This document shows, in pieces, positions 5,703 to 45,946 of a stretch of 64,000 nucleotides of DNA (its first letter is position 1; each line of letters opens with the position of its first letter). A model generated the notes under the pieces. The model saw only the letters and a program-made list of their open reading frames with translations. It searched no databases and was not told the DNA's origin. Origin of the DNA: an uncultured virus (IMG/VR IMGVR_UViG_3300033068_001295) (Duplodnaviria > Heunggongvirae > Uroviricota > Caudoviricetes); IMG/VR virus record IMGVR_UViG_3300033068_001295. The stretch is one strand, 5' to 3'. Both the position numbers and the translations under genes were made by a program.

Positions 5703-7347
5703 GGTATGGCACAAAATAAATTTCAAACAGAATTTAAGAAAATTCTTAAAAGCTATAATATAGAAGCAGAAAAAGAGTTCGATAGGTTAGAAGCCAAAGC
5801 TAAAACTAATTTAGGAGATGTTTGTATCACTTGTCTTAATGGTTGGATTGCTATGAGATTTGAACAAAAGGATTTTTCAATTTCTAAGTTTTTTGAGAAA
5901 TTTTCTGAGCATGAGCCTTTAAACAAATGGAGCTATAAATGGAATATTCATTTTAGTGATAAAGAAGTTTGCCTGATTGAGTTAGACGCGAGATTAAATG
6001 CTTTAATGAATTAGTTATGAGAACATTTACACCAATAATTATAATTAAGAACGAGGGCGTAAAATACTATCCGCTACCAATTGAAAAAGCGATTACTTTT
6101 GGGGAACGAAATGAAAATCAAAAAGTTTTATTTGAGACAGAATCTTTCAGAGTAAAAGAGGTACTAAATTTATCGCAATTAAAAACAATGTTATGAATAC
6201 AGAAGAAAAAATAGAAAATCAAGTCAGACTACAAAACAAGATGGTTATGGAAGCTAAGATAAACTTAGTTACTTGTGGGAACTGTGGCAGTCCTTTATTA
6301 CACGAAATTGACGAAGAAGAAATAGAATGTCCTTTTTGTGATATGAAAAGCGACCCTTGCGATTTCCCAGATTATTTTTACACAGGAATGGAATCAAATA
6401 ATTAAGAATATTATGAACGAAACATTAAAAAGCAGATTAAAAGAAGATTTAGATACAGTAACAACAGCTTCAGATTATGGAGATTTACTGAAAATACTTT
6501 CTTTTAAAACTAATATTCCTGTTGATGATTTACGAGAAGGAAAAGGAAGTTGGACTTATAGAGGTTGGAATAAAGAACTTAAAAAATATGGATTATGAAA
6601 AACTTAATACAAACAGCAGTTAATTTATGGTTTTGGCTTTATTATGACGTTATTTTTAGTTTTGCGGGCGTTATATGGTATGGAAAATTACCAAAGGTAT
6701 CTACCTATCACAGAGTAACAAGACAAGATTTTTACAGCTTAAAATCTATTTATAATGATATCAATGCGCAAGTTTTAAAAACAGATGACGTACCAACACA
6801 CATTAAAGATAAAGTGATTGAAGAATACCTTGACGCTTTAATGCAAGATATAGTGTTTCGCTCAAATGTTTTAAGTATCGATATTCCAATGTTTGATGGG
6901 AAAGAGGTCATAGGAACATCAGGTATTTATCCACTGTTAAACGAAGTAAAAACTAAACACCTAAACAAATGAATCTACAAGAAGTAAGAAAAAGATATCC
7001 TAAACACAGTTTATTTTTAAGCGCAACAAAAAACATTTCAAAACCTCTTAAAATAACTTACTTAAGATACGCAATTGAAAGACCAGGAGATATTGTTGAA
7101 GACACAGGTGGAGTTATTTATTGTTTTGAAACTAATACGTGGGCTGAAAATGTATAAAGATTTATTATTCGCGCAAGAAAATTACAAACAAGGTCAAAAA
7201 ATAATCTGCCTTGCCACAGGAAAAGAAAAAACAGTAGGTAAATCAATAATTGTTCACGAATTTTACAGTAATTTCATTATAAGCGAAAAACCTTATTGTG
7301 TGTTATACGACAGAGAGGAAAATAAGTGGGCGGAAAAAGTTTAAATT

Positions 7348-11813: not shown

Positions 11814-11867
11814 TATCATACTTAACAAATTAGAAAGCATTATTAACGAATAAAATAAGGGGTATGA
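11814..11867 (+). repeat. about 54-bp direct repeat, second copy 13421-13475
   Basis: TATCATACTTAACA(A/G)ATTAGAAAGCATTATTAACGAA(A)TAAAATAAGGGGTATGA flanks the satellite array. Confidence 0.9.
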
Positions 11868-11943
11868 GTAAAATTCAAAAAATGATTACAGATACAAAAC
11901 CAACATCAAATACAGCCGAAAATCAGCATTTACTATACACGTT

Positions 11944-13349
11944 GTTACCTGCTGTTTATTTTTTTTGTAATTATATTGATTATCTTTACACCATAGAAAT
12001 AACAACAATCCTAAAAAATAGAAATTATGACAACTCAAACATTAAATATCGAAACAGCTACAAAATCAGAAATAATTGTTGCAGCTTCTGTTCAAAAAGA
12101 ATTAATGGCTTTTTTAGGTGGTGTAGCAATGATTAAAGAAAGAAGCGAAGAAACATTAAGAAGTCTTTTAAAAATGTATTTTATGTTAAATACCGAAGTT
12201 GGAGCTTTTTATGATAAAAACGGATTTTAATATGAAAAGAAAAAACATAATAGTTTTTATTACCGTAGATAGAGTATCTGTTTACGGTAATTTTAAAAAA
12301 TGTTGTGACATTGAAAAATTACAATATCACTCATTAAAAATGAAAAGTTTCCCTATTATTTTAACCGACATAGTTATACACAAAGTTGAGTTTAAATAGC
12401 AGGTAACGGATTGCAGATTTGCGATGGGCGGGATTAATAACTAAAAATTTGATATGAAAACAGAACTTAATAATAACGAAAAACTTTCAACTGAGCAAGA
12501 AACCACGCCTATTGCAAATGTGCTGTTATAGGTAGGGCTTCTCACAAAACTTAAATAAAATGAATAAAGTAGTTACAAAAGTACACGGTGAAAATTCACA
12601 AGATTGGCACGAAGATTATGAAATTAAAATTAACTCTATAAATGGTTACGATACTATTTACAGAAGGATTTTTTATAAAAAAGGATATGTAAATAGAATA
12701 GTAATTGGACTTACTGCTGAAGAACGTGATTTAGCATACAATTCTTTGAGTGTTTCAAATGAATTAAATACATTAAAAAAATCATTTTGGTACAAGGTCG
12801 GGAAGTTCTTCGGAGCGTTCTCTTAGCCTTACCTATAACGGTCGATGATATGAGAGTATTTTCGGCAGGATAAATCCCGAACCTTTCAGTTTAAGACCAA
12901 AATTAAAAAGTACAAACCCAAAAATTAAATTAATAACCCAAAGCCGAAAATCTCTTATATCATTTGTTATCAGTAGGCTACATATTTACAAAATTATGAA
13001 AACATTAATTCAAAAAGTACAAGAAAAGCACGATTTTAAATGGTTTGACAAAGTAGTTATCCCCGGTCATTCTAAAATTTTAGTTCTAAATAAATATCAA
13101 TTAAATGTTGATGATGAAATGAAACTAATTCTTTCAGAAATGCACTGCAATAGCGAAACAATAGAAGATGCTTTACGATTAAGCATTACCGAAGTTGACG
13201 ATGATAATTTATTTCACGTTATAGATTTCTTCAATTTTAGCGATGAACAAAAGTTATTTTCATTCTTAGAGTTCTTCGTGAAATAGCTTACTCATAACAA
13301 GCGGGTGCTTTGCTTCAGTTGTTCCAATTGCGCAAAGCGCGAGTTGGGC
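11944..13349 (+). mobile_element. satellite array of three integron-like cassettes (genes 12027..12230 + 12232..12399; 12560..12826; 12996..13286)
   Basis: Cassette ends GTTACCTGCTGTTT/AAATAGCAGGTAAC, GTTATAGGTAGGGCT/AGCCTTACCTATAAC, GTTATCAGTAGGCTA/TAGCTTACTCATAAC; hairpins 12404-12528, 12836-12969; short terminal hairpin 13295-13349 ending GTTGGGC. Confidence 0.8.
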
Positions 13350-13471
13350 GTGAAGAAAGTTGAAAAGATTTATAATGATGGTAGAGAATTACAATCTTGC
13401 GTAAATAGCCGTTCACTATCTATCATACTTAACAGATTAGAAAGCATTATTAACGAAATAAAATAAGGGGT

Positions 13472-13843
13472 ATGAAAGAACAACTTAGAACAGAAGCGGA
13501 GAAAGTGTTGACAGAAAAAGGCATGAATTGCGCTAAATTAAGAAACACTTTTACTTTAGACGGTAACGATGACAGTTTTTTAGATAGAATTATCAACGCC
13601 ATGCTAGACTTCCACGCACAGCAATTGGAGAAAGACAATTGGGTTAGTGTGAGTGAGCGATTACCAGAATTGAAACAATATTGCTTAGTATCTTACGATG
13701 GTCATGTAATGATTGGACAACTTATAAAAATAAATAAACAAGGAATAGGGCTTTGGGATAATCCAGATTGGTTTACTTCTCATTCAAGAATTACCCATTG
13801 GCAACCATTACCGAAATCACCAACAACCACCCAAACACTTTAA
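13472..13843 (+). CDS. DUF551-domain phage protein
   Basis: WVSVSERLPE...ITHWQPLPKSP. Confidence 0.8.
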   Translation: MKEQLRTEAEKVLTEKGMNCAKLRNTFTLDGNDDSFLDRIINAMLDFHAQQLEKDNWVSVSERLPELKQYCLVSYDGHVMIGQLIKINKQGIGLWDNPDWFTSHSRITHWQPLPKSPTTTQTL

Positions 13844-20954: not shown

Positions 20955-21048
20955 ATCAGAGTGATGTGACCCTACCAACACGGTAAAAAATAAATATATG
21001 CCGAACTCCTTAGTAAAGGAATTGAAAAGGAGTTTTTAAAGCAATAAC

Positions 21049-21987
21049 ATGAAAAGAAAATTCAATCTATACGACAAAATAATAAGTTTAGAAAATTTAT
21101 GTACTGCGGATAAAATTGCAAGACGAGGAAAATTAAAACAATATGGTGTACAAAAACATATAGAGAACGCAGAATATAATATTGGATGGTTGCATGAATT
21201 ACTGAATCACAGAAAATTTGAAACATCTGAGTATAAAGAGTTTCATATATTTCAGCCGAAACATAGAACAATAGCGAGATTACCATATTATCCAGATAGG
21301 ATATTACAACACGCCATTATTTTACAAATAGGAAGTGTACTAACAAGAACATTTGTTACCGATACCTATAGTTGCGTTAAAGGTAGAGGTATTATGAAAG
21401 CATCTTATACTCTTAGGAAAGCATTACAAAACGAGGAGTATAATAAGTATTGTCTAAAATTAGATATTAAAAAGTTTTATGAGAATATAGACCATGAGAT
21501 ACTAAAAGCGTTATTAAGAAAAAAGTTTAAGGACAAGGATTTACTTAATTTATTAGATGAAATAATAGACTCTAATACAGTAGGTTTACCATTAGGCTCT
21601 TTAGTGAGTCAGTATTTAGCTAATTTTTATCTGTGTTATTTAGACCACTTTATAAAACAGCATTTAAAAGTGAAGTATTTTTGGAGGTACATGGATGATA
21701 TTGTAATTATTGGAAACGATAAGAAAGAATTACATTTTGTTCTCGCCGAAATAAGAAAATACCTATTAGGGTTAAAGTTAGAAATAAAAAATAATTATCA
21801 AGTATTTGAAGTTGAGGATAGAGGTATTGATTTTGTAGGCTTTGTACATCGAAAAGAATACATTCTACTTAGAAAAACAATAAAACAAAATTATAAACAA
21901 AGTAAAAATAAAGAAATGTGGAACTCATGGTTAGTCCACTGTAATTCAATTAATTTAAGAAGAAAACATGAAAAAAGTAACGACTAA
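21049..21987 (+). CDS. DGR reverse transcriptase
   Basis: YPDRILQHA, LKLDIKKFY, GLPLGSLVSQYLAN, YMDD, IDFVG motifs; 312 aa with no maturase or endonuclease tail; adjacent TR. Confidence 0.95.
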   Translation: MKRKFNLYDKIISLENLCTADKIARRGKLKQYGVQKHIENAEYNIGWLHELLNHRKFETSEYKEFHIFQPKHRTIARLPYYPDRILQHAIILQIGSVLTRTFVTDTYSCVKGRGIMKASYTLRKALQNEEYNKYCLKLDIKKFYENIDHEILKALLRKKFKDKDLLNLLDEIIDSNTVGLPLGSLVSQYLANFYLCYLDHFIKQHLKVKYFWRYMDDIVIIGNDKKELHFVLAEIRKYLLGLKLEIKNNYQVFEVEDRGIDFVGFVHRKEYILLRKTIKQNYKQSKNKEMWNSWLVHCNSINLRRKHEKSND

Positions 21988-30258: not shown

Positions 30259-30753
30259 GTGAATAACGACGGTATTTTTAAGCAACTGCCTGAGATAAGA
30301 AAAAATGGCAGTTTATATGAATGCATAAGAGAATTAATAGATAAAACCTTATCTAATAACGGTTTGCGTATAAAAAAAGCGTTTCAATGTTTTTTATACG
30401 CTGTTATAAGTATGTATTATTTTTGTTTTACCGATTAAAAAATATAATTATGGACTGTCAAAGACCAACAAAAAATGAAGAAACTGGTAAATGGGAAGTT
30501 TGGGATTTCGCTTATGAAGAAAATGGTGAAAGATATTATGAACTTCACGAGTTTTGGAAATATAAGGATGCTATTGAATTTTGGAAAATAAGAAACCCAA
30601 AACAAAAATAATATTACTTATAACTTAAATGTATTTACTGTTAAACATAACATAAGCGTTTTACCTAATGGTGAATATTATATGGAAGGTAAAAGAGTAG
30701 AAAAAGAGCAAATTTTTAAAGTGTTTAAACTAAGAAATTATGGAAATAAGTGA
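30259..30753 (+). pseudogene. 76-aa gene interrupted by a solo cassette at TAAC
   Basis: Removing 30361-30624 gives one ORF VNNDGIFKQ...KTLSNN|LNVFTVKH...RNYGNK*, overlapping both neighbouring genes as expected for phage gene packing. Confidence 0.75.
30361..30624 (+). mobile_element. solo integron-like cassette carrying ORF 30450..30611
   Basis: Short hairpin 30357-30406; ends GTTATAAGTATGTATTATTTTTG / CAAAAATAATATTACTTATAAC. Confidence 0.85.
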
Positions 30754-36999: not shown

Positions 37000-37514
37000 C
37001 TATGCAAATACTACTATTTACAAAAGGAAATTCAACTATTTATATCGCGCCAAAAAGTGAAAAACATAAACAGCAACTAATTTACAGATACGTAAAACTA
37101 AGAAAATATACACAACTACCTTATGTCGAACCTACGGCATAAGAAAAAACACCTTTTTAATTATGATAAAAATGTTATTACTTGTATTACTAGGTTTGTT
37201 TTTAGAAAGCAAGTATAAACCTAGACCTGATTGGATTAAAGACTCTAAAATGCTTATATTGCATTATAATGATGGTAAGAATGGTAGAAAATATAAAGTT
37301 ATTTTTAGATTATGATTCTTCCTATTTTTATTCCGCGACCCTATGAGTCAGATAACGGTATTTTGCTATACGAGGTTTGGGATAAAAAAGCCTAAATATT
37401 CGAGTTAGCCAAATAATAACCGACACAGACTGAACTTTAAATTGATAACCAAAGCCCAAATCTTGTATAGCAAATGTTAGCGGATGTACGGGTTAATTAA
37501 AAACGAAAATGTGA

Positions 37515-38249
37515 ATGAAATATATGGGAAGCAAAGCAAGATTTACCAAAGATATTTTGCCAATAATATTAGAAAACAGATTGCCAAATCAATATTTTGT
37601 TGATTTATTTACAGGCGGTGCAAATGTGGTTTCATTGGTTGATGGAAACCGAATTGCCAATGACAAAAATAAACACCTTATTGAAATGTTTAAAGGCTTA
37701 CAAAACGGAAATCATAGACCGTTTGAAATCTCAAAAGAACTTTATGACAAAGCAAGAACTGAATATAATAACGGCACAAACATTGAATTTGATGATTTTA
37801 TGATTGGGTGGATTGGATGGATGGGTTCTGCAAATGGAAGATTTTTTGATGGTGGATATTCTGGAACATCTAATACTAAAATCGGAACAGTTAGAAATTA
37901 TATAAAAGAAGCGATTAGTAATATTGAAAAGCAAAAACTAAACGGAATTAAATTTGTAAATCTTGATTATAAAGAAGTGGCAATTCCTAATAACAGTATT
38001 GTTTATTGTGACATTCCTTATGAAAATACAAAGCAATATTCAACATCAAAAGGATTTAATCATACTGAATTTTGGGATTATGCACGGAAATTATCTACTG
38101 AAGGACATTCAGTTTTTATTTCAGAATACAATGCTCCGAGTGATTTTAGATGTATTTGGCAAAAAGAAGCCAAATCTTCATTATCGGCAAATGGACAGAT
38201 TGGTGGGAACAAATGTTCTACTGAAAAACTATTCGAGTATATCCGCTAA
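37515..38249 (+). CDS. Dam-like (D12 class) N6-adenine DNA methyltransferase (cassette 1)
   Basis: MKYMGSK, DLFTGGA, YCDIPY, ISEY. Confidence 0.9.
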   Translation: MKYMGSKARFTKDILPIILENRLPNQYFVDLFTGGANVVSLVDGNRIANDKNKHLIEMFKGLQNGNHRPFEISKELYDKARTEYNNGTNIEFDDFMIGWIGWMGSANGRFFDGGYSGTSNTKIGTVRNYIKEAISNIEKQKLNGIKFVNLDYKEVAIPNNSIVYCDIPYENTKQYSTSKGFNHTEFWDYARKLSTEGHSVFISEYNAPSDFRCIWQKEAKSSLSANGQIGGNKCSTEKLFEYIR

Positions 38250-38318
38250 CGTTATCTCGCTTGCTCGTCGTTGTGGCGAATTAAAACAATATTAACAAAC
38301 AAACCTAAACTTTAAATT

Positions 38319-38993
38319 ATGCCCGAACTTTCAAAAAATACCGAGTGCCACAATGCGTGCAAACGAGTGTTAGCCCCAGTACGGGTTTTACACTTATACG
38401 CTGGACTTGGAGGAACTACGGATTTATTAGATGAAAATAAATTTGAAATAACTCACGTTGAATTAAATCCAAAAATTGCTAAAGTTCTACAAAAACGAAA
38501 ACCAAATCAAAAAGTAATAATTGCCGATGCGCATCAATTTCTTTTAGAAAATTATCAGGAGTATGATTTTATTATTTCAGGAATTCCTTGCCAAACACAT
38601 TCTAAAATGAACCGTGCAACCAGACACAATATGGTAAGGTTTATCGATGGAAAATTGATTGAAGAAATTGTTTTCTTAAAAACTTATTTTAAAGGAAAAT
38701 GGTTTGTTGAAAACGTAGTTCCATATTATGAGCCTTATGGAAATCCTACCAAATTAGGAAGGCATTTATTCTGGTCAAATTTTGATATTCCAGAAATGAT
38801 TGATTTGCCAAAATCGCCAAAAGGAATGATGAACCTTGCAACCGTTGGGCAGAAAAAACAAATGATGGATTGGCTTGGAATTCATTATGAAGAAAATATC
38901 TATTATGATGGAAATCATTGCCCAGTACAGATTTTACGAAACTGTGTACACCCAAAACTAGGACTACACGTCATTGAAAGCGCAAAATTCTAG
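38319..38993 (+). CDS. C5-cytosine DNA methyltransferase-like (cassette 2)
   Basis: LHLYAGLGG, GIPCQTHS, VENV, RNCV. Confidence 0.8.
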   Translation: MPELSKNTECHNACKRVLAPVRVLHLYAGLGGTTDLLDENKFEITHVELNPKIAKVLQKRKPNQKVIIADAHQFLLENYQEYDFIISGIPCQTHSKMNRATRHNMVRFIDGKLIEEIVFLKTYFKGKWFVENVVPYYEPYGNPTKLGRHLFWSNFDIPEMIDLPKSPKGMMNLATVGQKKQMMDWLGIHYEENIYYDGNHCPVQILRNCVHPKLGLHVIESAKF

Positions 38994-39112
38994 TATTGGG
39001 GCTAACGTTATCAGGCTTTGTGTCTGTTGCGTAAAAATAAACCAAAACATTAATTTAAACACTTAAAATTACAGATTATGACTAAACATTCAGAAAACAC
39101 CAAGCCAAGCCA

Positions 39113-39394
39113 TTGGACAAAACGGCTGTTAGCAGTAGTTATTCTATTGATTTATGCTTTGAAAATGTAGAACAAATGTTAATTGAAAATATTGCTGATT
39201 TGTTAGATGAAGAAGAAATTTTAATTCAAGAAGTAATGGCAGAATTAAAAGACCCAGAACCAAGAGAAAAAACAGAATTACATATTAGAATGGCAAAAGC
39301 AGCAATGAAAGAATATAAATCTACAATGTTGCAAAGTTCATTAAAAACTAATAATTTAGAGAATAACGGATTTTCTTTTAAAACAGGTGTGTAA
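39113..39394 (+). CDS. hypothetical protein (cassette 3)
   Basis: ORF filling the cassette; start uncertain. Confidence 0.55.
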   Translation: MDKTAVSSSYSIDLCFENVEQMLIENIADLLDEEEILIQEVMAELKDPEPREKTELHIRMAKAAMKEYKSTMLQSSLKTNNLENNGFSFKTGV

Positions 39395-39552
39395 TTACTG
39401 CTAACGGTTTGCAGATAGGCGATGTGGCACTTGTAGAATGTTGAAATTTAGCACAAATGTTTCTGTGCCATTTCTTATATACGCTGTTACCTGCTGGTGC
39501 GGTTTATTACTACAAAACTAAAATTGAAATACTAAACAAAAAATTATTAAAA

Positions 39553-40389
39553 ATGAGCGTAGGCAAAAAAGAAAAAATAAACGTATTATCATTGTTTGAT
39601 GGTATGAGTTGCGGACAAATTGCACTCAACAGAACAGGCATTTCCTATGGCAAATATTATGCCTCAGAGATTGATAAACACGCAATCAAAGTAACACAAC
39701 ACAATTACCCTGACACTATACAACTTGGAAGTATTACAGAAATTAAAGGCACGGATTTACCGCAAATTGATTTATTGATAGGCGGAAGCCCTTGCCAAGG
39801 ATTTTCATTTGCTGGAAAAGGGTTAAACTTTGACGACCCAAGAAGTAAATTGTTTTTTGAGTTTGTTAGAATATTAAAAGAAACTAAACCAAAATACTTC
39901 TTACTTGAAAACGTAAAGATGAAAAAGGAGTTTCAAGACATTATCAGCGAACAACTTGGAGTAAAGCCTATATTGATAAATTCAAGTTTGGTATCTGCCC
40001 AAAACCGTGAAAGATTGTATTGGACAAATATTCCACTAAACGGAATGCCAAAAGACAAAGGATTATTTTTAAAAGATATAATTGAAAAAGGAGCAGGTAA
40101 AAAACTATCTGAACAAACCGCAGAAAGACCAAGAACATTGAGGAATTACAGAAATGAAAATCAAAAAGCATTTTGTATGCTTGCAACTATGTGGAAAGGC
40201 TCACAAAGCAATGGAATGACAGTAATAGATGATAATGGATTAAGAAACATAACACCTTTAGAATGTGAAAGATTACAAACCGTTCCTGATAATTACACAA
40301 ATGTAGTTGCGGACACAAATAGATACACAATGCTTGGAAATGGGTGGAACGTTGATACAATCGCTCATATTTTCGGAGGACTGTCCTAG
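39553..40389 (+). CDS. dcm: C5-cytosine DNA methyltransferase (cassette 4)
   Basis: LSLFDGMSCG, GGSPCQGFS, LLENV, QNRERLYW, ERLQ, LGNGW. Confidence 0.92.
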   Translation: MSVGKKEKINVLSLFDGMSCGQIALNRTGISYGKYYASEIDKHAIKVTQHNYPDTIQLGSITEIKGTDLPQIDLLIGGSPCQGFSFAGKGLNFDDPRSKLFFEFVRILKETKPKYFLLENVKMKKEFQDIISEQLGVKPILINSSLVSAQNRERLYWTNIPLNGMPKDKGLFLKDIIEKGAGKKLSEQTAERPRTLRNYRNENQKAFCMLATMWKGSQSNGMTVIDDNGLRNITPLECERLQTVPDNYTNVVADTNRYTMLGNGWNVDTIAHIFGGLS

Positions 40390-40531
40390 CATTACGCCTA
40401 ACGGCTGCGTGTATGAAACGTTGCCTACACAAAAGTTAAAAAAATGAACAGAATTATAAATTTAGTATAAACTTAAAAAAAGACCGCGAAAGGCAATGTT
40501 TTATACACGTTGTTATGTGGCGTTAATTGTT

Positions 40532-40720
40532 ATGGAAATTATTCAAAACGATTTTTCAAAGGAATTATCCGAGTTACTTAAAAAGTACAAGAAAATAATA
40601 ACTGCTGATAAATCAGGTATTCATATCATTGATTGTGATAATATCGAAGCGGTTATAATTCAAAAAGCGACAGTTGCTTCTGAGGATTATAGAGATACTT
40701 TAATGTTTGTGGTTTCTTAA
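40532..40720 (+). CDS. hypothetical protein (cassette 5)
   Basis: ORF between cassette ends. Confidence 0.6.
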   Translation: MEIIQNDFSKELSELLKKYKKIITADKSGIHIIDCDNIEAVIIQKATVASEDYRDTLMFVVS

Positions 40721-40807
40721 TGCCACATAACGTCCGCAGGTATATTTCAGTTGCGGAATACGAAGCACTTAATTATCAAATTAGTAATAACTTAAATAGA
40801 AAGAAAA

Positions 40808-41047
40808 ATGTCGAATAAAACACAAAAACCGCAATTGAATATACCTGTTGTTATGCACTGGGTATCAGTTGTATATGAATTACCACCTAAAAACGAAATA
40901 GTTATAGGTTATTTCCCAAGAGGTGCAAAAAGAGGGCAAAAAGCAACTCCAAAAAGCATTACTCAAAAAGAAAGTAGTAAAACATTTACAGGTGTCGCAA
41001 AGGCAATGGCTGAACAATGGTCGGTCGTTCTCACAGCTTGCACCTAA
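40808..41047 (+). pseudogene. chimeric ORF: DUF551-like N-terminus + methyltransferase-like C-terminus (cassette 6)
   Basis: HWVSVVYELPP... joined to SKTFTGVAKAMAEQW; the cassette's two ends do not match each other. Confidence 0.6.
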
Positions 41048-41199
41048 CGTTCGAGTGCTTGGCGAAGAAGCGGATAAAGAAGCCAAAAGCTTCAATTAAG
41101 CACCAAACTAACAAATAAAAAACAAACTTTAAATTAATAACCGAACCAGCTTTTTTGCCAAACACTTGTTATGGTTAGTGCGGTTCATTAAAACAAAAC

Positions 41200-41679
41200 G
41201 TGATGAAACAATTAAATCAAATTATCAAAACATTAAGAGAAGAAACGGCTTTTTCATTTGCTGAAAAGAAATTAGAAATACTTAGAAGTCAAAAAGACTA
41301 TGAAGAAACAATGAAACAATGTTACAGCGGAAAAGATAATCCAACAATTGAAGAATGTGTTCAGAATGCTATTAGAACATTTGTTTCTGAATATCAAAAA
41401 ATGTGTGAGATTTATTCAGGATGGTTGAAAAATGGATGCGTTTTTATTTTAGATAAACGAGATAGATTTGTTCTTGCTTTATACAAGGTTGATGATATTG
41501 CACATACGGCAATTGCACATTATAACCCAATGAATGTTGATTGTATAGAACAATCAACATCTAATAAACATTTTTTTGAACAGTTAAATGCCCGTTTTGA
41601 TATTTCTACGGATGAAAATTTATTAATTGAAGAATGTGACGAATTAGTTAAAAATACCGTTGATAAGGTTATTTCGTAG
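41200..41679 (+). CDS. hypothetical protein (cassette 7)
   Basis: ORF between matched cassette ends. Confidence 0.7.
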   Translation: MMKQLNQIIKTLREETAFSFAEKKLEILRSQKDYEETMKQCYSGKDNPTIEECVQNAIRTFVSEYQKMCEIYSGWLKNGCVFILDKRDRFVLALYKVDDIAHTAIAHYNPMNVDCIEQSTSNKHFFEQLNARFDISTDENLLIEECDELVKNTVDKVIS

Positions 41680-41811
41680 CATTAACCATAACGGATTGCG
41701 GCTTTGTGTCTGTTTGCCCCTTGCACAAAGTTTCAATTTAACGACAAACTTAATGGGGCAAATAGCACAAAACCGCTGTTATGCGTAGTGGCGGTTTAAT
41801 AACGAGAAATT

Positions 41812-42330
41812 ATGAGTAGAAAAGGAATACCAACAAAACCAAACAAAACAGAAAAGGCAACCGCTGCTGATAGTGTATTCACAAAAAACACAACAGCCAA
41901 ATGGATTGTAGATTATTTCAAAGCACAAGGCTCAATATTAGAACCTGCTGCTGGTGAAAATGCTTTTTATAACCTATTTGATAACGAAGAAAAATACCGA
42001 TGCGAAATAACTGATGGGCTTGATTTTTTCGAGTGGGATAAAAAAGTGGATTGGATAATCACAAACCCACCTTACAGTATTTACGATTTGTTTCTTCAAA
42101 AAGCATTTTCTGTTGCTGATAACGTTGTGTTTTTTGTTCCGATTGCAAAGGCTTTCAAAAGTAATAAGATACAACAAATGGTAATTGATTACGGTGGATT
42201 GAAAGAGATAGTATATATGGGCGGTGGAAGTAAACATGGGTTTGCTTTTGGATTCCCTGTCGGTTGCCTACATTATCAAAAAGGTTTTGTTGGTGATTGT
42301 AAGATAACTTATGTAATGGACGGATGGTAG
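41812..42330 (+). CDS. amino (N6A/N4C) DNA methyltransferase (cassette 8)
   Basis: ILEPAAGENAF, DFF, IITNPPYS. Confidence 0.85.
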   Translation: MSRKGIPTKPNKTEKATAADSVFTKNTTAKWIVDYFKAQGSILEPAAGENAFYNLFDNEEKYRCEITDGLDFFEWDKKVDWIITNPPYSIYDLFLQKAFSVADNVVFFVPIAKAFKSNKIQQMVIDYGGLKEIVYMGGGSKHGFAFGFPVGCLHYQKGFVGDCKITYVMDGW

Positions 42331-42407
42331 CCATTACGCATAACGGTAAACGGCTTTGCGTAGTGCCGACTTAAAACTACGAATTATCAACTTAAAACAA
42401 ATTTAAA

Positions 42408-42662
42408 ATGAGTGCAAAAATTATCAGTGAAAAACTAACTAAGGCATTACGCAAAACCGATGTTAGCAGCAGTTTTATTCCTCCCGATAACGGTGATGTG
42501 CGTTGGCAAGCAGGTTCAGAAACATTTACAAGGGAAGAAGTAGCTTCTTTATTGTGGACACAAATTGCAATGATAAGTAACGACCTAAGAATCTGCTGCG
42601 GGAAGGACTTGACAAAAGATATGTATGAAGTTATTGATAACCCTCGAATACCAGAGTTCTAA
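42408..42662 (+). CDS. hypothetical protein (cassette 9), start codon inside the hairpin
   Basis: ORF reads through GTTA 42462. Confidence 0.6.
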   Translation: MSAKIISEKLTKALRKTDVSSSFIPPDNGDVRWQAGSETFTREEVASLLWTQIAMISNDLRICCGKDLTKDMYEVIDNPRIPEF

Positions 42663-42836
42663 AAATTGCTGCTAACGTTTTGTAGCTTGTTGCAGTGGCG
42701 TGCAAATAAGCGAGTAGTTTCGGTTTAAAAACTATAATAACAGAGAAGCCAAAACATTAAATTAAACAACAACAACCAGCCATTGCTACAAACTACTGTT
42801 ATAGGTAGTGGCGGGTAACTAAAACAAAGCGTAATT

Positions 42837-43058
42837 ATGAAAACAAAAAATAGTTTTCCAAGTTCTGAGTTTGAACACAAAGACAGATGTCCTTCTTGTG
42901 GGAGTTATTGTAATATACATATAGATTTAAACGAAAAAGACGAGTGTAATGATTGCAAACACTCTTGTAAAAATTGTGGAGATACGGAAGAAATTTCAGA
43001 AGAATATGATTTATGTTATAAATGTTGGAAGGAATTTTCTCCCGATGCAGATTGTTAG
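42837..43058 (+). CDS. Cys-rich zinc-finger-like protein (cassette 10)
   Basis: Multiple CxxC pairs. Confidence 0.6.
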   Translation: MKTKNSFPSSEFEHKDRCPSCGSYCNIHIDLNEKDECNDCKHSCKNCGDTEEISEEYDLCYKCWKEFSPDADC

Positions 43059-43224
43059 CCATAACCTATAACGTATTGGTGCTTTACGTCCGTTGTGGTT
43101 AAACAAGCCTAAACTTTCCTGTTATCACGAAATTAAACTGATGCAAAACAAACTTAATATTAAACCTAAACCCACAATGGCGTAAAACACTTGTTAGCCG
43201 TTCGGTTTTTAAACACAAATTAAA

Positions 43225-43446
43225 ATGAAAAATTTAGCAAACATTGAAGTATTTAACATCGAAATTACAGAAAAAGGAACATTTGCACACATTTCCTTTC
43301 AAGATTTAGACAACACAGACAACTTAAATAATGGTTACGATAATATTCGTGTGCCAATGAATTTAAGACCAATTCAATTATCTGTTAGAGATAATATGTT
43401 AGTTAATCAATCAGTTAAAAATTATGTAGATGTCGTTGGTTCTTAA
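43225..43446 (+). CDS. hypothetical protein (cassette 11)
   Basis: ORF between matched cassette ends. Confidence 0.65.
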   Translation: MKNLANIEVFNIEITEKGTFAHISFQDLDNTDNLNNGYDNIRVPMNLRPIQLSVRDNMLVNQSVKNYVDVVGS

Positions 43447-43608
43447 ACTGACGGCTAACGTCGGATGCTACACGATGGATGGGAAAAGCACAAACCCATA
43501 TATCGATTTAAGACAGATTAAACAGGTGCAAAAACCAACTTTAAATTTAACCTAAAACCAGCTATTGTGTAGCATATGTTACTGGCTGTGTTTTTAACAC
43601 TAAACGAA

Positions 43609-43938
43609 ATGAAAAAAGTATTAAGATTTTTATCAAGCAAAAAATGGATTTATGAATTAGCATTAAGCATAATAGCTAATAGAATTGTTCACTCACAAAA
43701 TTTATTAAGACCTGATTATTTAATTGCAAAAGGTTGGATTGAAGAAGATGGATTTTATTTTGAGCCAAACACAAAAGACAGAGATAAAATTTGGATTCAA
43801 TTTGAAAACCATTATTTCAGAGTATGGCACGGAAAAGAAAAAACATTCATTGGATTAGAAAGTAAAGTTGAATGGTTTGAAACTTATTTCTTAATGGCTC
43901 ATTCGGATAATGGTCGTTATGAAATGGCTGGCGTGTAA
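43609..43938 (+). CDS. hypothetical protein (cassette 12)
   Basis: ORF between matched cassette ends. Confidence 0.65.
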   Translation: MKKVLRFLSSKKWIYELALSIIANRIVHSQNLLRPDYLIAKGWIEEDGFYFEPNTKDRDKIWIQFENHYFRVWHGKEKTFIGLESKVEWFETYFLMAHSDNGRYEMAGV

Positions 43939-44054
43939 CATAGCCAGTAACGGTTTGCGTATATACGAGGTACGCCTTAACGAAATTTTAAATTATAAAC
44001 AAATGCTTGTAGGCGTATCTTGTATATACGCTGTTATAAGCTGTAAAAAATACG

Positions 44055-44252
44055 ATGATGGAAAACGAACAAATCAAAAAGGAATGTGAACAAATGTATG
44101 CACAAATTAAAAGTGCAGAAGAAAGACTAAAGGAATTGACAGCAATTTGCAAACACGAAAAAACTTTTGAAGGCAATTACTCTTGGCGAGTGGGAAACAT
44201 TCAACCAGCAGACATTTGTGAATACTGTGGCTCGTTGGTAAGGTATAAGTAG
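44055..44252 (+). CDS. hypothetical protein (cassette 13)
   Basis: ORF between matched cassette ends; CxH...CxxC. Confidence 0.65.
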   Translation: MMENEQIKKECEQMYAQIKSAEERLKELTAICKHEKTFEGNYSWRVGNIQPADICEYCGSLVRYK

Positions 44253-44433
44253 TATTTTTTATTGCTTATAACGTTTTCGGGCTTGGCGAAGTGCCGCACA
44301 GCAGAAACTTCGGATTTGAGCAGGAACTTTCTTGCGGCATTTTGGCAAACCGCTGTTATGCGTATGTGCCGACTTGTTTAGCAGGAATTTCATTTGGAAC
44401 ACGAATAGAAATTTTTAATTAAACCATAACGAA

Positions 44434-45039
44434 ATGACAAAAGATTGGACAGGAAACAGCAACAGCATCTATAAGACTTTAGGTGCAAGCAATCATACTG
44501 ATAAAGAAAGGCAGAATGAAGATTATTACGCAACAGACCCGAAAGCAGCCGATTTGCTTTTAGAACTTGAAACATTTTCGCCAAATATTTGGGAGTGTGC
44601 TTGTGGTGAAGGGCATTTAAGCAAGGTGTTTGAAAACGCTGGACATATAGTTAAAAGCACCGACCTAATGGATAGGGGATTTGGTGAAACAGGGATAGAC
44701 TTTTTGAGCATTGACAACTTGGAATGGAACGGAGATATTATTACAAACCCACCTTACAAGTATGCACAGGAATTTATTGAAAAGGCATTACATATTATAC
44801 CCGAAGGAAACAAGGTAGCAATGTTTTTGAAAATACAATTTTTGGAAGGTAAAGGGCGAAAAAAGTTGTTTCTATCACAACCACCAAAGACCGTTTATGT
44901 TTCAAGTTCTCGGCTGCTTTGTGCAAAGAACGCTGAATTTGAAAAAATGATTGCTGGAGGTGGAAGTGCTGTTGCTTATGCTTGGTATGTATGGCAAAAA
45001 GGCTTCAATGGAACGACAGAACTCAAATGGTTTAATTAA
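44434..45039 (+). CDS. amino (N6A/N4C) DNA methyltransferase (cassette 14)
   Basis: DYYATDP, IWECACGEGHLS, IITNPPYK, YAWYVW. Confidence 0.85.
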   Translation: MTKDWTGNSNSIYKTLGASNHTDKERQNEDYYATDPKAADLLLELETFSPNIWECACGEGHLSKVFENAGHIVKSTDLMDRGFGETGIDFLSIDNLEWNGDIITNPPYKYAQEFIEKALHIIPEGNKVAMFLKIQFLEGKGRKKLFLSQPPKTVYVSSSRLLCAKNAEFEKMIAGGGSAVAYAWYVWQKGFNGTTELKWFN

Positions 45040-45145
45040 AAATTTCAAACGAGAATGTCAATCGGAGAACGTCTGCAAGGCATTACGCATAACTGCTATA
45101 TATCCTCACCTATATAAAAACACTAATAAAATAAATATCTGACAG

Positions 45146-45946
45146 ATGAAAATTCTACAAATTTTTGAAAATAAATTGAGATATAAAAATTACTCTGAAA
45201 ACACAATAAAAGTATATGTACAAACTTTATCGCAATACTTAAAAGAAACTAATTGTAAAGACCCTTACAGAGTATTAGCTAAAGATATTATTTCATACTT
45301 AGAAAACAAAAAGTTTACTTCTATTGCTCAACAAAATCAGTTTATTGGTTGTTTAAAACTTTTTGCTCGATATATCTTAAATAAGAAAGATGTTCACTTA
45401 GATAAAATAGAAAGACCTCGTGGGGAAAGAAAATTACCAAAGGTAATTGAAAAAGAGTTTTTACTTGATAAACTTTCAAAAATTGAGAATATAAAACATA
45501 AAGCTATTTTAAGTTTAGCTTACTCAACAGGTATGAGAGTTTCAGAAATTTGCAGCTTAAAACAATCTGATATTGATAGTAAAAGGATGTTAATACATAT
45601 TAAGAATGCAAAAGGTAGAAAAGACAGAATTGTACCTTTAAGTCAAACTATATTACATTTATTAAGAAACCAACATATAAAAGAGAGACCTGTTGTTTAT
45701 GTTTTTAATGGACAAAATAAAGGAGAAGAGTATTCACATACAAGCTGTAATGAAATTGTTAAAAAGTATATTGGAAAAGAGTATCACATGCACCTTCTAA
45801 GACACTCACATGCCACGGCATTACTGGAGTCAGGAACAGATTTGAGGTATATTCAAGACCAATTAGGGCACGCAAGTAGTAGAACAACAGAAATTTATAC
45901 GCACGTTTCAACAGCATACAAGCATAAACTAAATCTGCCTATATGA
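45146..45946 (+). CDS. tyrosine recombinase, integron-integrase/Xer-like, with SAM-like N-terminal domain
   Basis: LRYKNYSENTIKVY; catalytic GMRVSE, KGRKDR, HLLRHS, LGH, TTEIYTHV. Confidence 0.93.
   Translation: MKILQIFENKLRYKNYSENTIKVYVQTLSQYLKETNCKDPYRVLAKDIISYLENKKFTSIAQQNQFIGCLKLFARYILNKKDVHLDKIERPRGERKLPKVIEKEFLLDKLSKIENIKHKAILSLAYSTGMRVSEICSLKQSDIDSKRMLIHIKNAKGRKDRIVPLSQTILHLLRNQHIKERPVVYVFNGQNKGEEYSHTSCNEIVKKYIGKEYHMHLLRHSHATALLESGTDLRYIQDQLGHASSRTTEIYTHVSTAYKHKLNLPI

Follow-up and report, generated by a model that had tools for sequence, protein, structure and literature searches.

Organization of the cassette array

The window, by which we mean the whole 64,000-nucleotide stretch of uncultured viral DNA that was analysed, holds an integron-like array beside the gene for a 266-aa Xer/IntI-like tyrosine recombinase, which lies 52 nt behind the main array. 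Cassettes run from GTTA to TAAC and are separated by junction sites of the form TAAC-hairpin-GTTA. The features are as follows.

11944-13298, +, satellite array: cassettes sat1 (11944-12407), sat2 (12525-12839) and sat3 (12966-13298); junction sites 12404-12528 and 12836-12969
30357-30624, +, solo unit: hairpin (30357-30406), on the left only, and cassette (30403-30624)
37353-37479, +, junction site 0, at the end of the main array far from the recombinase; no cassette matches its left flank
37476-38250, +, cassette main1, D12-class adenine DNA methyltransferase; G 37486 faces T 38240
38247-38372, +, junction site 1, read from the sequence
38369-39006, +, cassette main2, C5 cytosine DNA methyltransferase; ORF start in the upstream hairpin loop (38319)
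39003-39131, +, junction site 2; 89% identity with a site of Flavobacterium siphophages
39128-39405, +, cassette main3
39402-39489, +, junction site 3, short type
39486-40402, +, cassette main4, C5 methyltransferase; ends mismatched to each other
40399-40515, +, junction site 4
40512-40731, +, cassette main5
40728-40853, +, junction site 5
40850-41048, +, cassette main6; ends unmatched
41045-41171, +, junction site 6
41168-41692, +, cassette main7
41689-41781, +, junction site 7, short type
41778-42344, +, cassette main8; weak, sub-cutoff Pfam matches to N6 adenine DNA methylase families
42341-42465, +, junction site 8
42462-42676, +, cassette main9; ORF start in the hairpin loop (42408)
42673-42801, +, junction site 9
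42798-43072, +, cassette main10; A.A mismatch at position 10, G.T at 11
43069-43196, +, junction site 10
43193-43459, +, cassette main11; one bulged T, then G facing T
43456-43581, +, junction site 11
43578-43951, +, cassette main12
43948-44036, +, junction site 12, short type
44033-44272, +, cassette main13; T.T mismatch at position 10, G.T at 11
44269-44358, +, junction site 13, short type
44355-45093, +, cassette main14; no Pfam match; extra T ahead of the G
45090-45145, +, attI-like site: the last TAAC, with no hairpin behind it, then a conserved T-N2-TATAT motif, up to the recombinase start
45146-45946, +, tyrosine recombinase, 266 aa, Xer/IntI-like, without the IntI insertion

A fixed G.T pair in the cassette-end duplexes

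The left end of each cassette (GTTA followed by six variable bases, N6) was paired with its right end (the complementary N6' followed by TAAC), and all 18 cassettes of the window were tabulated. As the original prediction had claimed, a left-end G faces a right-end T at position 11 in every one of the 16 cassettes with matched ends (12 main, 3 satellite and 1 solo). For 13 of these (main1, 2, 3, 5, 7, 8, 9, 10, 12 and 13; sat1, 2 and 3) the pairing is ungapped, with one further mismatch in three (position 10 in main10 and main13, position 6 in sat3), and the duplex continues beyond the G.T, positions 12-14 or 12-15 being paired in all 13. The remaining three (main11, main14 and the solo cassette) carry an additional base in the left strand, and G meets T only past the one-base bulge that it makes; this base is the extra T that had been described, located two bases before the G in main11. 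The two cassettes with unmatched ends, main4 and main6, also keep G and T at position 11, as had been stated. With base frequencies of about 0.18 for G and 0.30 for T, a hand calculation gives G with T by chance in about one cassette in 20, and hence a chance of order 1e-21 for 16 of 16.

An additional exact-N6 pair, at 7113/9880, likewise has G and T; it has no hairpin, is without the T/G flanks, and was counted as a chance occurrence.

Two arms per site

Within the junction hairpin, the inner arm repeats the outer arm in dyad relation and has a G.T of its own at the corresponding position. This pair was found in 169 of 201 unique sites, and T.G in none, using a site finder that demanded TAACG, TGTTA and at least 12 of 18 Watson-Crick pairs, and that is thereby biased to well-paired sites and makes the core-adjacent G.T invariant by construction. 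Inner-hairpin G.T pairs on the + strand had also been claimed originally, and the example quoted, at 37353-37479, is real, with two such pairs in its inner arm. The base profiles of the inner and outer arms agree at one register only (r=0.81, against at most 0.36 at 13 other shifts). Both arms fit the loose consensus G-T-T-A-K-N-N-G-Y-A-[G.T]-K-T, and in both the G lies on the strand running 5' to 3' away from the centre. An intact TAAC/GTTA core is present in the outer arm only; that of the inner arm is spoiled.

The full site consists of the outer arm, a centre of about 6 bp where a T-rich stretch of 3-5 bases bulges from the 5' strand only, and the inner arm. No single bulged base was seen inside the inner arm in the predicted consensus fold. 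Because the outer arm is built from the two ends of one cassette, it can be fully closed only in an excised circle, or by cross-cassette pairing in single-stranded DNA. In resident arrays the outer arms are hybrids, with strands from different cassettes, and past the 4-base core they pair poorly, positions 5-10 being Watson-Crick in 50-114 of 219 cases.

The covariation proposed with the original prediction was examined in 60 sites, and the neighbours of the G.T do covary around a pair that is itself fixed. Paired cells made up 93.9%, against 64.8% in shuffled sets, and the covariation score was 0.662, a value reached in none of 500 shuffles, against 0.150; slid controls scored 0.096-0.141. 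The G.T column itself was G.T in 57 of the 60 sites.

Conservation in other phages and in bacteria

A set of 167 unique cassette-end pairs was assembled from 58 sources. At outer-arm position 11 there were 151 G.T pairs, 12 more in which G met T past one extra base, two Watson-Crick pairs, and no T.G. Watson-Crick pairing at positions 12, 13, 14 and 15 occurred in 152, 142, 149 and 112 of the 167, and from position 16 on in 33-54. The G.T mark is present in 42 sources, the window and 41 other loci. An unbiased sample taken from consecutive hairpins gave G.T in 139 of 168 and Watson-Crick in 6. Chromosomal arrays of Flavobacteriia have the outer G.T in 16 of 17 unique pairs and the inner-arm wobble in 9 of 11, and relatives of the recombinase down to 41% identity co-occur with the mark. 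The original prediction staked itself in part on conservation in homologous sites elsewhere, and on this count it has survived, both among the end pairs at large and among the bacterial ones. Our literature searches found no paper describing a fixed G.T mark.

The crossover point

In 41 of the 43 loci printed and inspected by eye, as well as in the window, the last TAAC is followed by the conserved T-N2-TATAT ahead of the recombinase gene. Locus L025 is L028 with a single additional hairpin-plus-cassette unit, which sits exactly after the last TAAC. From that TAAC, L028 is 100% identical to L023 and L026 over 2651 nt, and the upstream sequences are unrelated. The array anatomy, the attI-like motif and this natural insertion place the crossover at TAAC on the + strand, beside the attI-like site.

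Four cassette comparisons were informative on the upstream side: L001/L002 for ACCGCT, L001/L002 for ACAAAT, L041/L056, and the window against L053, in which main8 is 95% identical to the L053 cassette from 4 nt ahead of its GTTA (41774) through TAAC. Two of the four break at the GTTA side of the upstream hairpin, and these breaks are not explained by a single crossover at TAAC.

The recombinase

The recombinase has the catalytic RKHRHY residues. The best structural neighbour of its predicted model is the Vibrio integron integrase 2a3v (TMq 0.71), and the IntI insertion is missing: residues 176-209 of the query (33 aligned) correspond to residues 180-260 of 2a3v (80), about 47 residues fewer, and the model has a mere short loop at 181-197. 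Its scores lie under the cut-offs of the integron-integrase models (TIGR02249, 150.3 bits against 265; NF011946, 110.6 against 435) and of all the Xer models (XerA, 172.6 against 220; XerD, 148.3 against 329.6; XerC, 145.5 against 335.2), with XerA the top match by sequence. That this protein acts on the sites of the array is suggested by the gene neighbourhood. A tyrosine recombinase is absent altogether from three array-bearing phage records; the arrays of lillamy9-3 and mumin6-3 come without one, and the entire records of L001 and L002 are without PF00589.

Strand asymmetry and alternative explanations

The explanation that we consider likely is that the position-11 G.T is an integral part of the arms to which the recombinase binds, in an attC-like site that functions as folded single-stranded DNA. 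The two strands of a site are not equivalent. Inner-arm wobbles number 396 on the + strand against 91 on the - strand, and the comparison of folding energies suggested with the original prediction favours the + strand, which has the stabler fold in 174 of the 201 hairpins (mean -1.86 kcal/mol) and the stabler pairing in 134 of the 148 end duplexes (mean -0.93 kcal/mol). The - strand is favoured in 23 of the hairpins and 14 of the duplexes, main14 and the solo cassette of the window among them, and the gap in energy between the strands is small. One mismatch runs the other way: the C.A that recurs at inner position 5 (63 of 201 sites) becomes a wobble when the - strand is read.

The wobbles might work through stability only, the + strand folding while the - strand is left with A.C mismatches, and the protein not reading them. 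The energies agree with this, as do the G.T pairs that part of the sites have elsewhere in the inner arm (positions 1, 9 and 11 in 54, 40 and 49 of 201). Stability alone, however, would permit T.G and any position, yet the position is fixed in both arms, T.G is absent from all 167 end pairs and all 201 sites, and one wobble is worth only about 1 kcal/mol; we hold this explanation to be unlikely.

It is quite unlikely that the mark is read on double-stranded DNA, where G versus A at position 11 would separate the left and right arms of conventional core sites, in the manner of the unequal arms of Xer sites, and would fix the sequence in which strands are exchanged. Such a reading gives no reason for the covariation between inner arms or between the ends of one cassette, nor for the one-sided bulge, even though the hybrid arms of resident arrays keep G and T in 177 of 219 cases whatever faces them, and the stretch from the inner arm to the GTTA end has, when taken as duplex, two arms flanking about 6 bp.

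A frozen accident, or a mutation bias without function (for instance C to T on an exposed strand), would draw on the excess of G over C on the + strand and on a conceivable common ancestor of all the sites. But the adjoining pairs have turned over many times while the G.T stayed, cassette ends unrelated in sequence all carry it, and it holds where its strand is non-coding and in the company of recombinases that have diverged to 41% identity. We regard this as very improbable.

Which strand has the G.T depends on the polarity of the site, whatever the direction of the genes: in phages it coincides with the coding strand, in bacteria with the non-coding one. Among 180 cassettes examined from all sources, 118 have a long ORF solely on the G.T strand; in the window and the other phages the ORFs lie behind their hairpin and point towards the attI-like site. 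Thirteen bacterial cassettes have the long ORF solely on the strand opposite. There the layout is ORF-then-site, with ORFs reading away from attI, and since the marked strand is the non-coding one, the mark belongs to the DNA site and not to the mRNA. It follows the TAAC/GTTA polarity and the side of the recombinase. Invariant G.U pairs are common marks in RNA and the phage G.T strand is the coding one, but the idea of a G.U wobble within folded cassette transcripts, for instance in a stem for their processing or stabilisation, is already contradicted by the 13 bacterial cassettes and by this polarity. No Rfam family reaches threshold on the array, and we find the idea scarcely credible.

A model for strand choice

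We return to the folded single-stranded site. The G.T mark, conserved in many phages and bacteria, probably tells the small recombinase which folded strand to bind and cut. The original prediction had placed a structure-specific determinant on single-stranded DNA, the + strand being the one that folds; at the level of sequence, the fixed pair, the bias in wobbles, the side of the crossover and the polarity in bacteria all lend it support. Each fixed G.T is an A.C mismatch on the complementary strand, and a wobble would therefore mark the substrate strand. Each arm would be bound by one monomer of the compact Xer/IntI-like recombinase, which would cleave the 5' strand of the outer arm after TAA, and the cut strand would be exchanged singly with the TAAC of the attI-like site beside the recombinase gene. 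The wobble would present the protein with a fixed point of reference in the structure, roughly one helical turn away from the cut. Under this model the recombinase would read the wobble and would meet its site as single-stranded DNA; that only one strand is exchanged is suggested by the wobble asymmetry together with the crossover side.

The textbook example of a recombinase guided by DNA shape and not by sequence is that of integrons, where the choice of strand is ascribed to flipped-out bases and to an IntI-specific domain that holds them. The present system combines the same cassette logic with a smaller enzyme without that domain and with another structural mark, so that folded-DNA recognition would have more than one solution. 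On an evenly balanced judgement, Flavobacteriia and their phages may harbour a separate integron-like gene-capture lineage, in which a minimal Xer-type recombinase lacking the IntI insertion reads folded single-stranded sites, with two dif-like arms, through an oriented G.T in each arm, one helical turn from the cut, a wobble code replacing the extrahelical bases of attC. Such a lineage could be a living intermediate between Xer/dif and IntI/attC, and the phages would have turned the layout round, with the hairpin ahead of the gene and the coding strand marked, to shuffle methyltransferases and other accessory genes. The system bears on the origin of integrons from Xer systems and on the exchange of anti-restriction methyltransferases among phages of aquatic Bacteroidota, and, needing only one protein and short oligonucleotides, it is a simple setting in which to ask how a plain Xer-type fold can select a strand. 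The G.T rule is a sharp and cheap signature with which to find and orient such sites in genomes and metagenomes.

Comparison with known systems

In classical integrons, attC sites are recombined as folded bottom strands by IntI, as described by Bouvier et al. (2009, PMC2727003). The present arrays resemble them in that cassettes lie beside a tyrosine recombinase whose model is closest to 2a3v; in that the sites are AAC...GTT imperfect palindromes with a variable loop and, in predicted folds, two binding boxes around an unpaired centre; in that the two ends of a cassette complete the outer box; and in that insertion occurs at a primary site adjoining the recombinase gene. The bacterial relatives alone also share the ORF-then-site layout with a non-coding marked strand. 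In contrast to integrons, the recombinase has only 266 aa, is without the IntI-specific insertion and scores 150 bits against a cut-off of 265, the arms measure about 15 bp against 7, and the ORFs of the phage cassettes face the attI-like site. The mark had been predicted to differ from the extrahelical bases of attC, and this agrees with the missing insertion and with the predicted folds, which have no single extrahelical bases but a fixed G.T in both arms and a one-sided central bulge.

A cluster of two or more attC sites with no integrase close by is termed a CALIN (Cury et al. 2016, PMC4889954). One with methyltransferase genes is reported in the flavobacterial Polaribacter phage P12002L, and one of its sites was recombined by IntI1 when given as the bottom strand (Qi et al. 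2023, PMC9892861); the part of that paper's text available to us mentions no Flavobacterium phage, Xer-like recombinase or wobble. In our analysis the sites of P12002L are eroded relatives, none of their end pairs matching exactly. L001 and L002 share the lack of a recombinase that characterizes a CALIN, whereas the array in the window has its own.

Like the Xer proteins, of which XerA is its top sequence match, the recombinase is a simple two-domain enzyme. A dif-type site has two arms of about 11 bp around 6-8 bp. The profile match at one register gives the array sites a two-arm geometry; with putative cleavage points this would come to inverted arms of about 11 bp on either side of about 6 bp, which may resemble the arms of dif. 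Xer recombination also integrates the folded single-stranded genome of phage CTX (PMC3442271), which by analogy would be a precedent for the exchange of one strand pair between folded single-stranded phage DNA and a duplex, with replication finishing the process. Unlike Xer/dif, the protein lies under all Xer cut-offs, the sites bound gene cassettes in arrays, and one protein would serve both arms.

Cassette arrays and their genomic setting

The window has a G+C content of 31%, and between 1 and 52 kb almost every gene is on the + strand. Its GC skew tracks the direction of transcription and is uninformative on the replication strand. PHROG and Pfam matches gave a large-phage gene set that includes a family A DNA polymerase, a DnaB-like helicase and exonucleases, together with a reverse transcriptase, NAD salvage enzymes and a 1914-aa virion protein. 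The reverse transcriptase gene (21049-21987) matches phrog_1423 and is group-II-RT-like at 110 bits, against a cut-off of 300. Within 20968-21987, this gene directly follows a match to the Rfam RT-17 RNA motif that stays under the threshold (26 bits versus 40.4), and this placement suggests that the match is real. A Megablast search with the window returned short matches only, all to Flavobacterium siphophages and one uncultured record, and the matched segments were the hairpins between cassettes. The cassettes and the associated recombinase gene are arranged as follows.

37353 to 45093, + strand: main array, 14 units, each with GTTA at its start and TAAC at its end
11944-13298: satellite array, three cassettes
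30357-30624: solo unit, with a hairpin on its left side only
45090-45093: last TAAC of the main array, without a hairpin behind it
45146-45946: tyrosine recombinase gene (266 aa), starting 52 nt past the last TAAC

Between the units of the main array stand imperfect palindromes, each about 80-120 nt long, with TAACG at the start and TGTTA at the end. Three cassettes have Pfam matches above the curated cut-off, one to a D12-class adenine methyltransferase and two to C5 cytosine methyltransferases. The eighth cassette of the main array, main8, has weak, sub-cutoff matches to N6 methylase families, and the remaining cassettes, including main14, had no Pfam match above the cut-off. Two cassette ORFs (starts at 38319 and 42408) begin within the upstream hairpin's loop, after a loop motif like AACTTTAAATT, and run through the 3' arm of the hairpin and GTTA; thus hairpin and cassette form one expression unit in the phage arrays. 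The satellite array is flanked by direct repeats of about 55 nt (11815-11870 and 13423-13478), which are the 3' ends of two genes sharing the same last residues.

A G.T pair at position 11 of the cassette ends

All cassettes of the window were tabulated, and in 16 of 18 the two ends pair with each other to form an outer arm. The original prediction of a G.T pair at position 11 in every matched cassette was borne out: in 13 the pairing is ungapped, with the left-strand G opposite the right-strand T and three to four more Watson-Crick pairs beyond it, and in the other three (main11, main14 and the solo unit) one extra left-strand base stands ahead of the G. As had also been predicted, main4 and main6, whose ends are mismatched, still have G and T at these places. 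From base composition, G with T would be expected by chance in about 1 in 20 cassettes (calculated by hand). The left end of main4 (39486) is the same as that of the first satellite cassette (11944) through position 11, and its right end comes from another pair; main8 (41778) and main14 (44355) share the same N6. One further end pair, 7113/9880, was rejected as a chance match, having no hairpin and the wrong flanks.

Conservation in phage and bacterial loci

Fifty-five relatives of the recombinase (47-79% identity) were found on viral contigs, and their loci, the window and two siphophage loci made up 58 sources. End pairs were picked if their N6 matched exactly and the T/G flanks were present, position 11 not being a criterion. 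This gave 197 pairs in one orientation and 1 in the other. Among the 167 unique pairs, position 11 was G.T in 151, Watson-Crick in 2, T.G in none and something else in 14, of which 12 are the extra-base form. This form is concentrated in a few arrays (L010 and L031-L033), accounting for 4 of the 15 cassettes of L010 and 5 of the 11 of L031. Positions 12-15, likewise not used in selection, were Watson-Crick in 152, 142, 149 and 112 of the 167 pairs, and from position 16 on in only 33-54, so the arm is about 15 bp long. In a second sample, for which the ends between consecutive hairpins were taken with no match required, 115-145 of 168 were Watson-Crick at positions 5-10 and 139 of 168 had G.T at position 11.

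The G.T mark was present in 42 sources, the window and 41 other loci. It is carried by lillamy9-3 and mumin6-3, whose whole records are without a tyrosine recombinase. Of 17 unique pairs from chromosomal loci of Flavobacterium, Aquimarina, Croceitalea and Tenacibaculum, whose recombinases show 41-46% identity, 16 have G.T. Absence of the G.T from homologous sites would have spoken against the original prediction; it is conserved in the phage and the bacterial sites alike. Polaribacter phage P12002L was considered as a direct relative and set aside: it has no exactly matched end pair, and its sites are short and worn, one with CAAC for TAAC.

The inner arm repeats the outer arm

The stem of the junction hairpin forms an inner arm, with about 20 paired positions next to the core in 201 unique hairpins. 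In 192 of these, a one-sided bulge of 4 or 5 bases on the 5' strand lies opposite a single T. Inner position 14 is G.T in 169 of 201 and never T.G, and inner position 5 is C.A in 63. When inner position 4 is laid on outer position 1, the base preferences agree in each column (T, A/T, T/G, G at 8, A at 10, G.T at 11, T/G at 12, T at 13). The two profiles correlate at 0.81 in this register, and none of 13 other shifts exceeds 0.36. We therefore conclude that two dyad-related arms sharing one consensus make up the site, and that the wobble is at arm position 11 in both. In either arm, the G of the wobble is on the strand running 5' to 3' away from the centre. On the 5' strand of the inner arm the T that would complete GTTA is found in 0% of cases, so the second core is spoiled; the matching A of the opposite strand, where present, faces C.

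Covariation was examined in 60 of 69 long-type sites, selected by script. RNAalifold gave 23 pairs, of which 16 show compensatory changes, and the G.T column was intact in 57 of 60 sites. The paired cells amounted to 93.9% versus 64.8% in shuffles, a percentage inflated by the preselection of sites with 12 or more Watson-Crick pairs out of 18; the compensatory changes are not inflated by this. The covariation score was 0.662 versus 0.150 in shuffles (0 of 500 reached it) and 0.096-0.141 with slid partners. The core-adjacent G.T (TAACG/TGTTA) is invariant by construction of the filter.

Strand preference

Over inner positions 1-20, wobbles number 396 on the + strand and 91 on the - strand (summed by hand). 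Folding energies computed with DNA parameters were lower for the + strand in 174 of 201 hairpins and 134 of 148 end duplexes (mean differences -1.86 and -0.93 kcal/mol, respectively), which favours the + strand as the folded substrate, as originally proposed. The energy gap is modest, and the exceptions include main14 and the solo unit.

The bacterial arrays have both the recombinase gene and the cassette ORFs on the strand opposite G.T; this is therefore the classical integron layout, the marked strand being the 'bottom' strand. An ORF of at least 60% of cassette length occurs only on the strand opposite G.T in 13 bacterial cassettes, and only on the G.T strand in 118 of 180 cassettes from all sources. 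The G.T mark thus follows the site, not the gene, and the phage arrays are the same sites as the bacterial ones with the genes turned round. A reading of the mark as a G.U pair in mRNA is ruled out by the bacterial ORFs on the strand opposite G.T; an Rfam search of 11000-46500 found nothing above threshold.

Crossover side and array dynamics

At the recombinase-proximal end of the array, a conserved T-N2-TATAT motif comes after TAAC, forming an attI-like site; this was seen in the window and in 41 of 43 loci inspected by eye, and two loci have CAAC instead of TAAC. The distal end has a full hairpin. Locus L028 is 100% identical to L023 and L026 over 2651 nt from the T of the attI-like TAAC and unlike them upstream. 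L025 (119-915) has in addition to L028 one hairpin-then-cassette unit with G.T-marked cassette ends, exactly between the TAAC (L028 2608-2611) and the motif, the contigs being otherwise 98-100% identical. Tyrosine recombinases such as Xer and IntI cut where the 3' end of an arm meets the centre. With the crossover at the attI-like TAAC, it would therefore be the + strand that is cut and exchanged.

The alternative, crossover at the GTTA side with each hairpin belonging to the upstream cassette, is ruled out by the hairpin at the distal end and none at the proximal end. The solo unit, with its hairpin on the left only, and the L025/L028 insertion, with its hairpin in front, also argue against it, as do all five informative cases, in which homology stopped short of the downstream hairpin. 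Of four cassette comparisons informative for the upstream break, two break at the GTTA side, and these may represent occasional exchange at the inner arm. Rare L-box events have been described in classical sites (Escudero et al., PMC4792948). Crossover at TAAC, the wobble counts with the folding energies, and the mark following the site all agree on the + strand.

Contigs assembled from sequencing runs break at the repeated hairpins, and their loose ends cluster at TAAC/GTTA borders (39402, 39489, 41774, 41782, 38246 and 44260-44267). Shared hairpin modules are thus seen joined to other cassettes, but as assembled contigs only, the data are uninformative on excision, circles and strand use. 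In two runs, a pair of TAAC positions is connected by a joint from 42339 to 44268, with only 20-26 letters on its shorter side. Two related Flavobacterium siphophages without a tyrosine recombinase of their own carry two cassettes in opposite order (L001 4804-5468 and 5525-5884; L002 6403-7066 and 4796-5155), an instance of cassette shuffling, with the enzyme presumably supplied in trans. In the bacterial loci L061-L091, a conserved attI-like stretch about 130-170 nt behind the recombinase stop ends ...CGCATATA-N4-5-GTTA on the recombinase strand and, read on the other strand, resembles the phage motif.

The recombinase

The 266-aa protein has Pfam integrase catalytic and SAM-like N-terminal domains, and its catalytic residues are invariant in 34 relatives. 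It scored below every curated cut-off (XerA 172.6 versus 220, integron integrase 150.3 versus 265, XerD 148.3 versus 329.6). An 80-residue stretch of the Vibrio integron integrase 2a3v corresponds to 33 residues of the phage recombinase. The AlphaFold model (pLDDT 87.7) has only a short loop at the place of the IntI insertion, and the best structural neighbour of the predicted fold is 2a3v (TMq 0.71), ahead of XerA and XerH. The insertion is described as 'not fully conserved' in a passage on an integron-like subgroup (Smyshlyaev et al., PMC8138268).

Proposed mechanism

We propose that a closed site would form in an excised circle, or by pairing across the cassette in single-stranded DNA, with two arms of about 15 bp around a centre of about 6 bp with a T-rich bulge. 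Most likely, each arm would be bound by one recombinase monomer. Since an intact TAAC is confined to the outer arm, a single strand would be cut and exchanged with the attI-like TAAC, and replication would complete the reaction, as in integrons. The G.T pair, oriented and invariant, would lie ten bp from the predicted cut in each arm, with an A.C mismatch in its place on the other strand, and probably serves as both a landmark for the protein and a strand selector. Weak points of this mechanism are the poor pairing of the resident array's outer arm, which is a hybrid, and the two upstream breaks at the GTTA side.

Comparison with known systems

Our literature search found no description of this system or of the G.T rule, and such papers could exist outside its reach. 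Clusters of attC sites in phages have been reported, one with methyltransferases in Polaribacter phage P12002L, of which one site was recombined by IntI1 as the bottom strand (Qi et al. 2023, PMC9892861). The main text of that paper does not mention Flavobacterium phages, Xer-like enzymes or wobbles; its supplement may list more. The array described here has the same overall logic as integrons, as these are outlined by Bouvier et al. (2009, PMC2727003), but it departs from them in the IntI insertion, the model score and, judging from predicted folds, the extrahelical bases. Xer enzymes are described as acting on the folded single-stranded genome of the CTX phage (PMC3442271), and this system offers a mechanistic precedent for the array.
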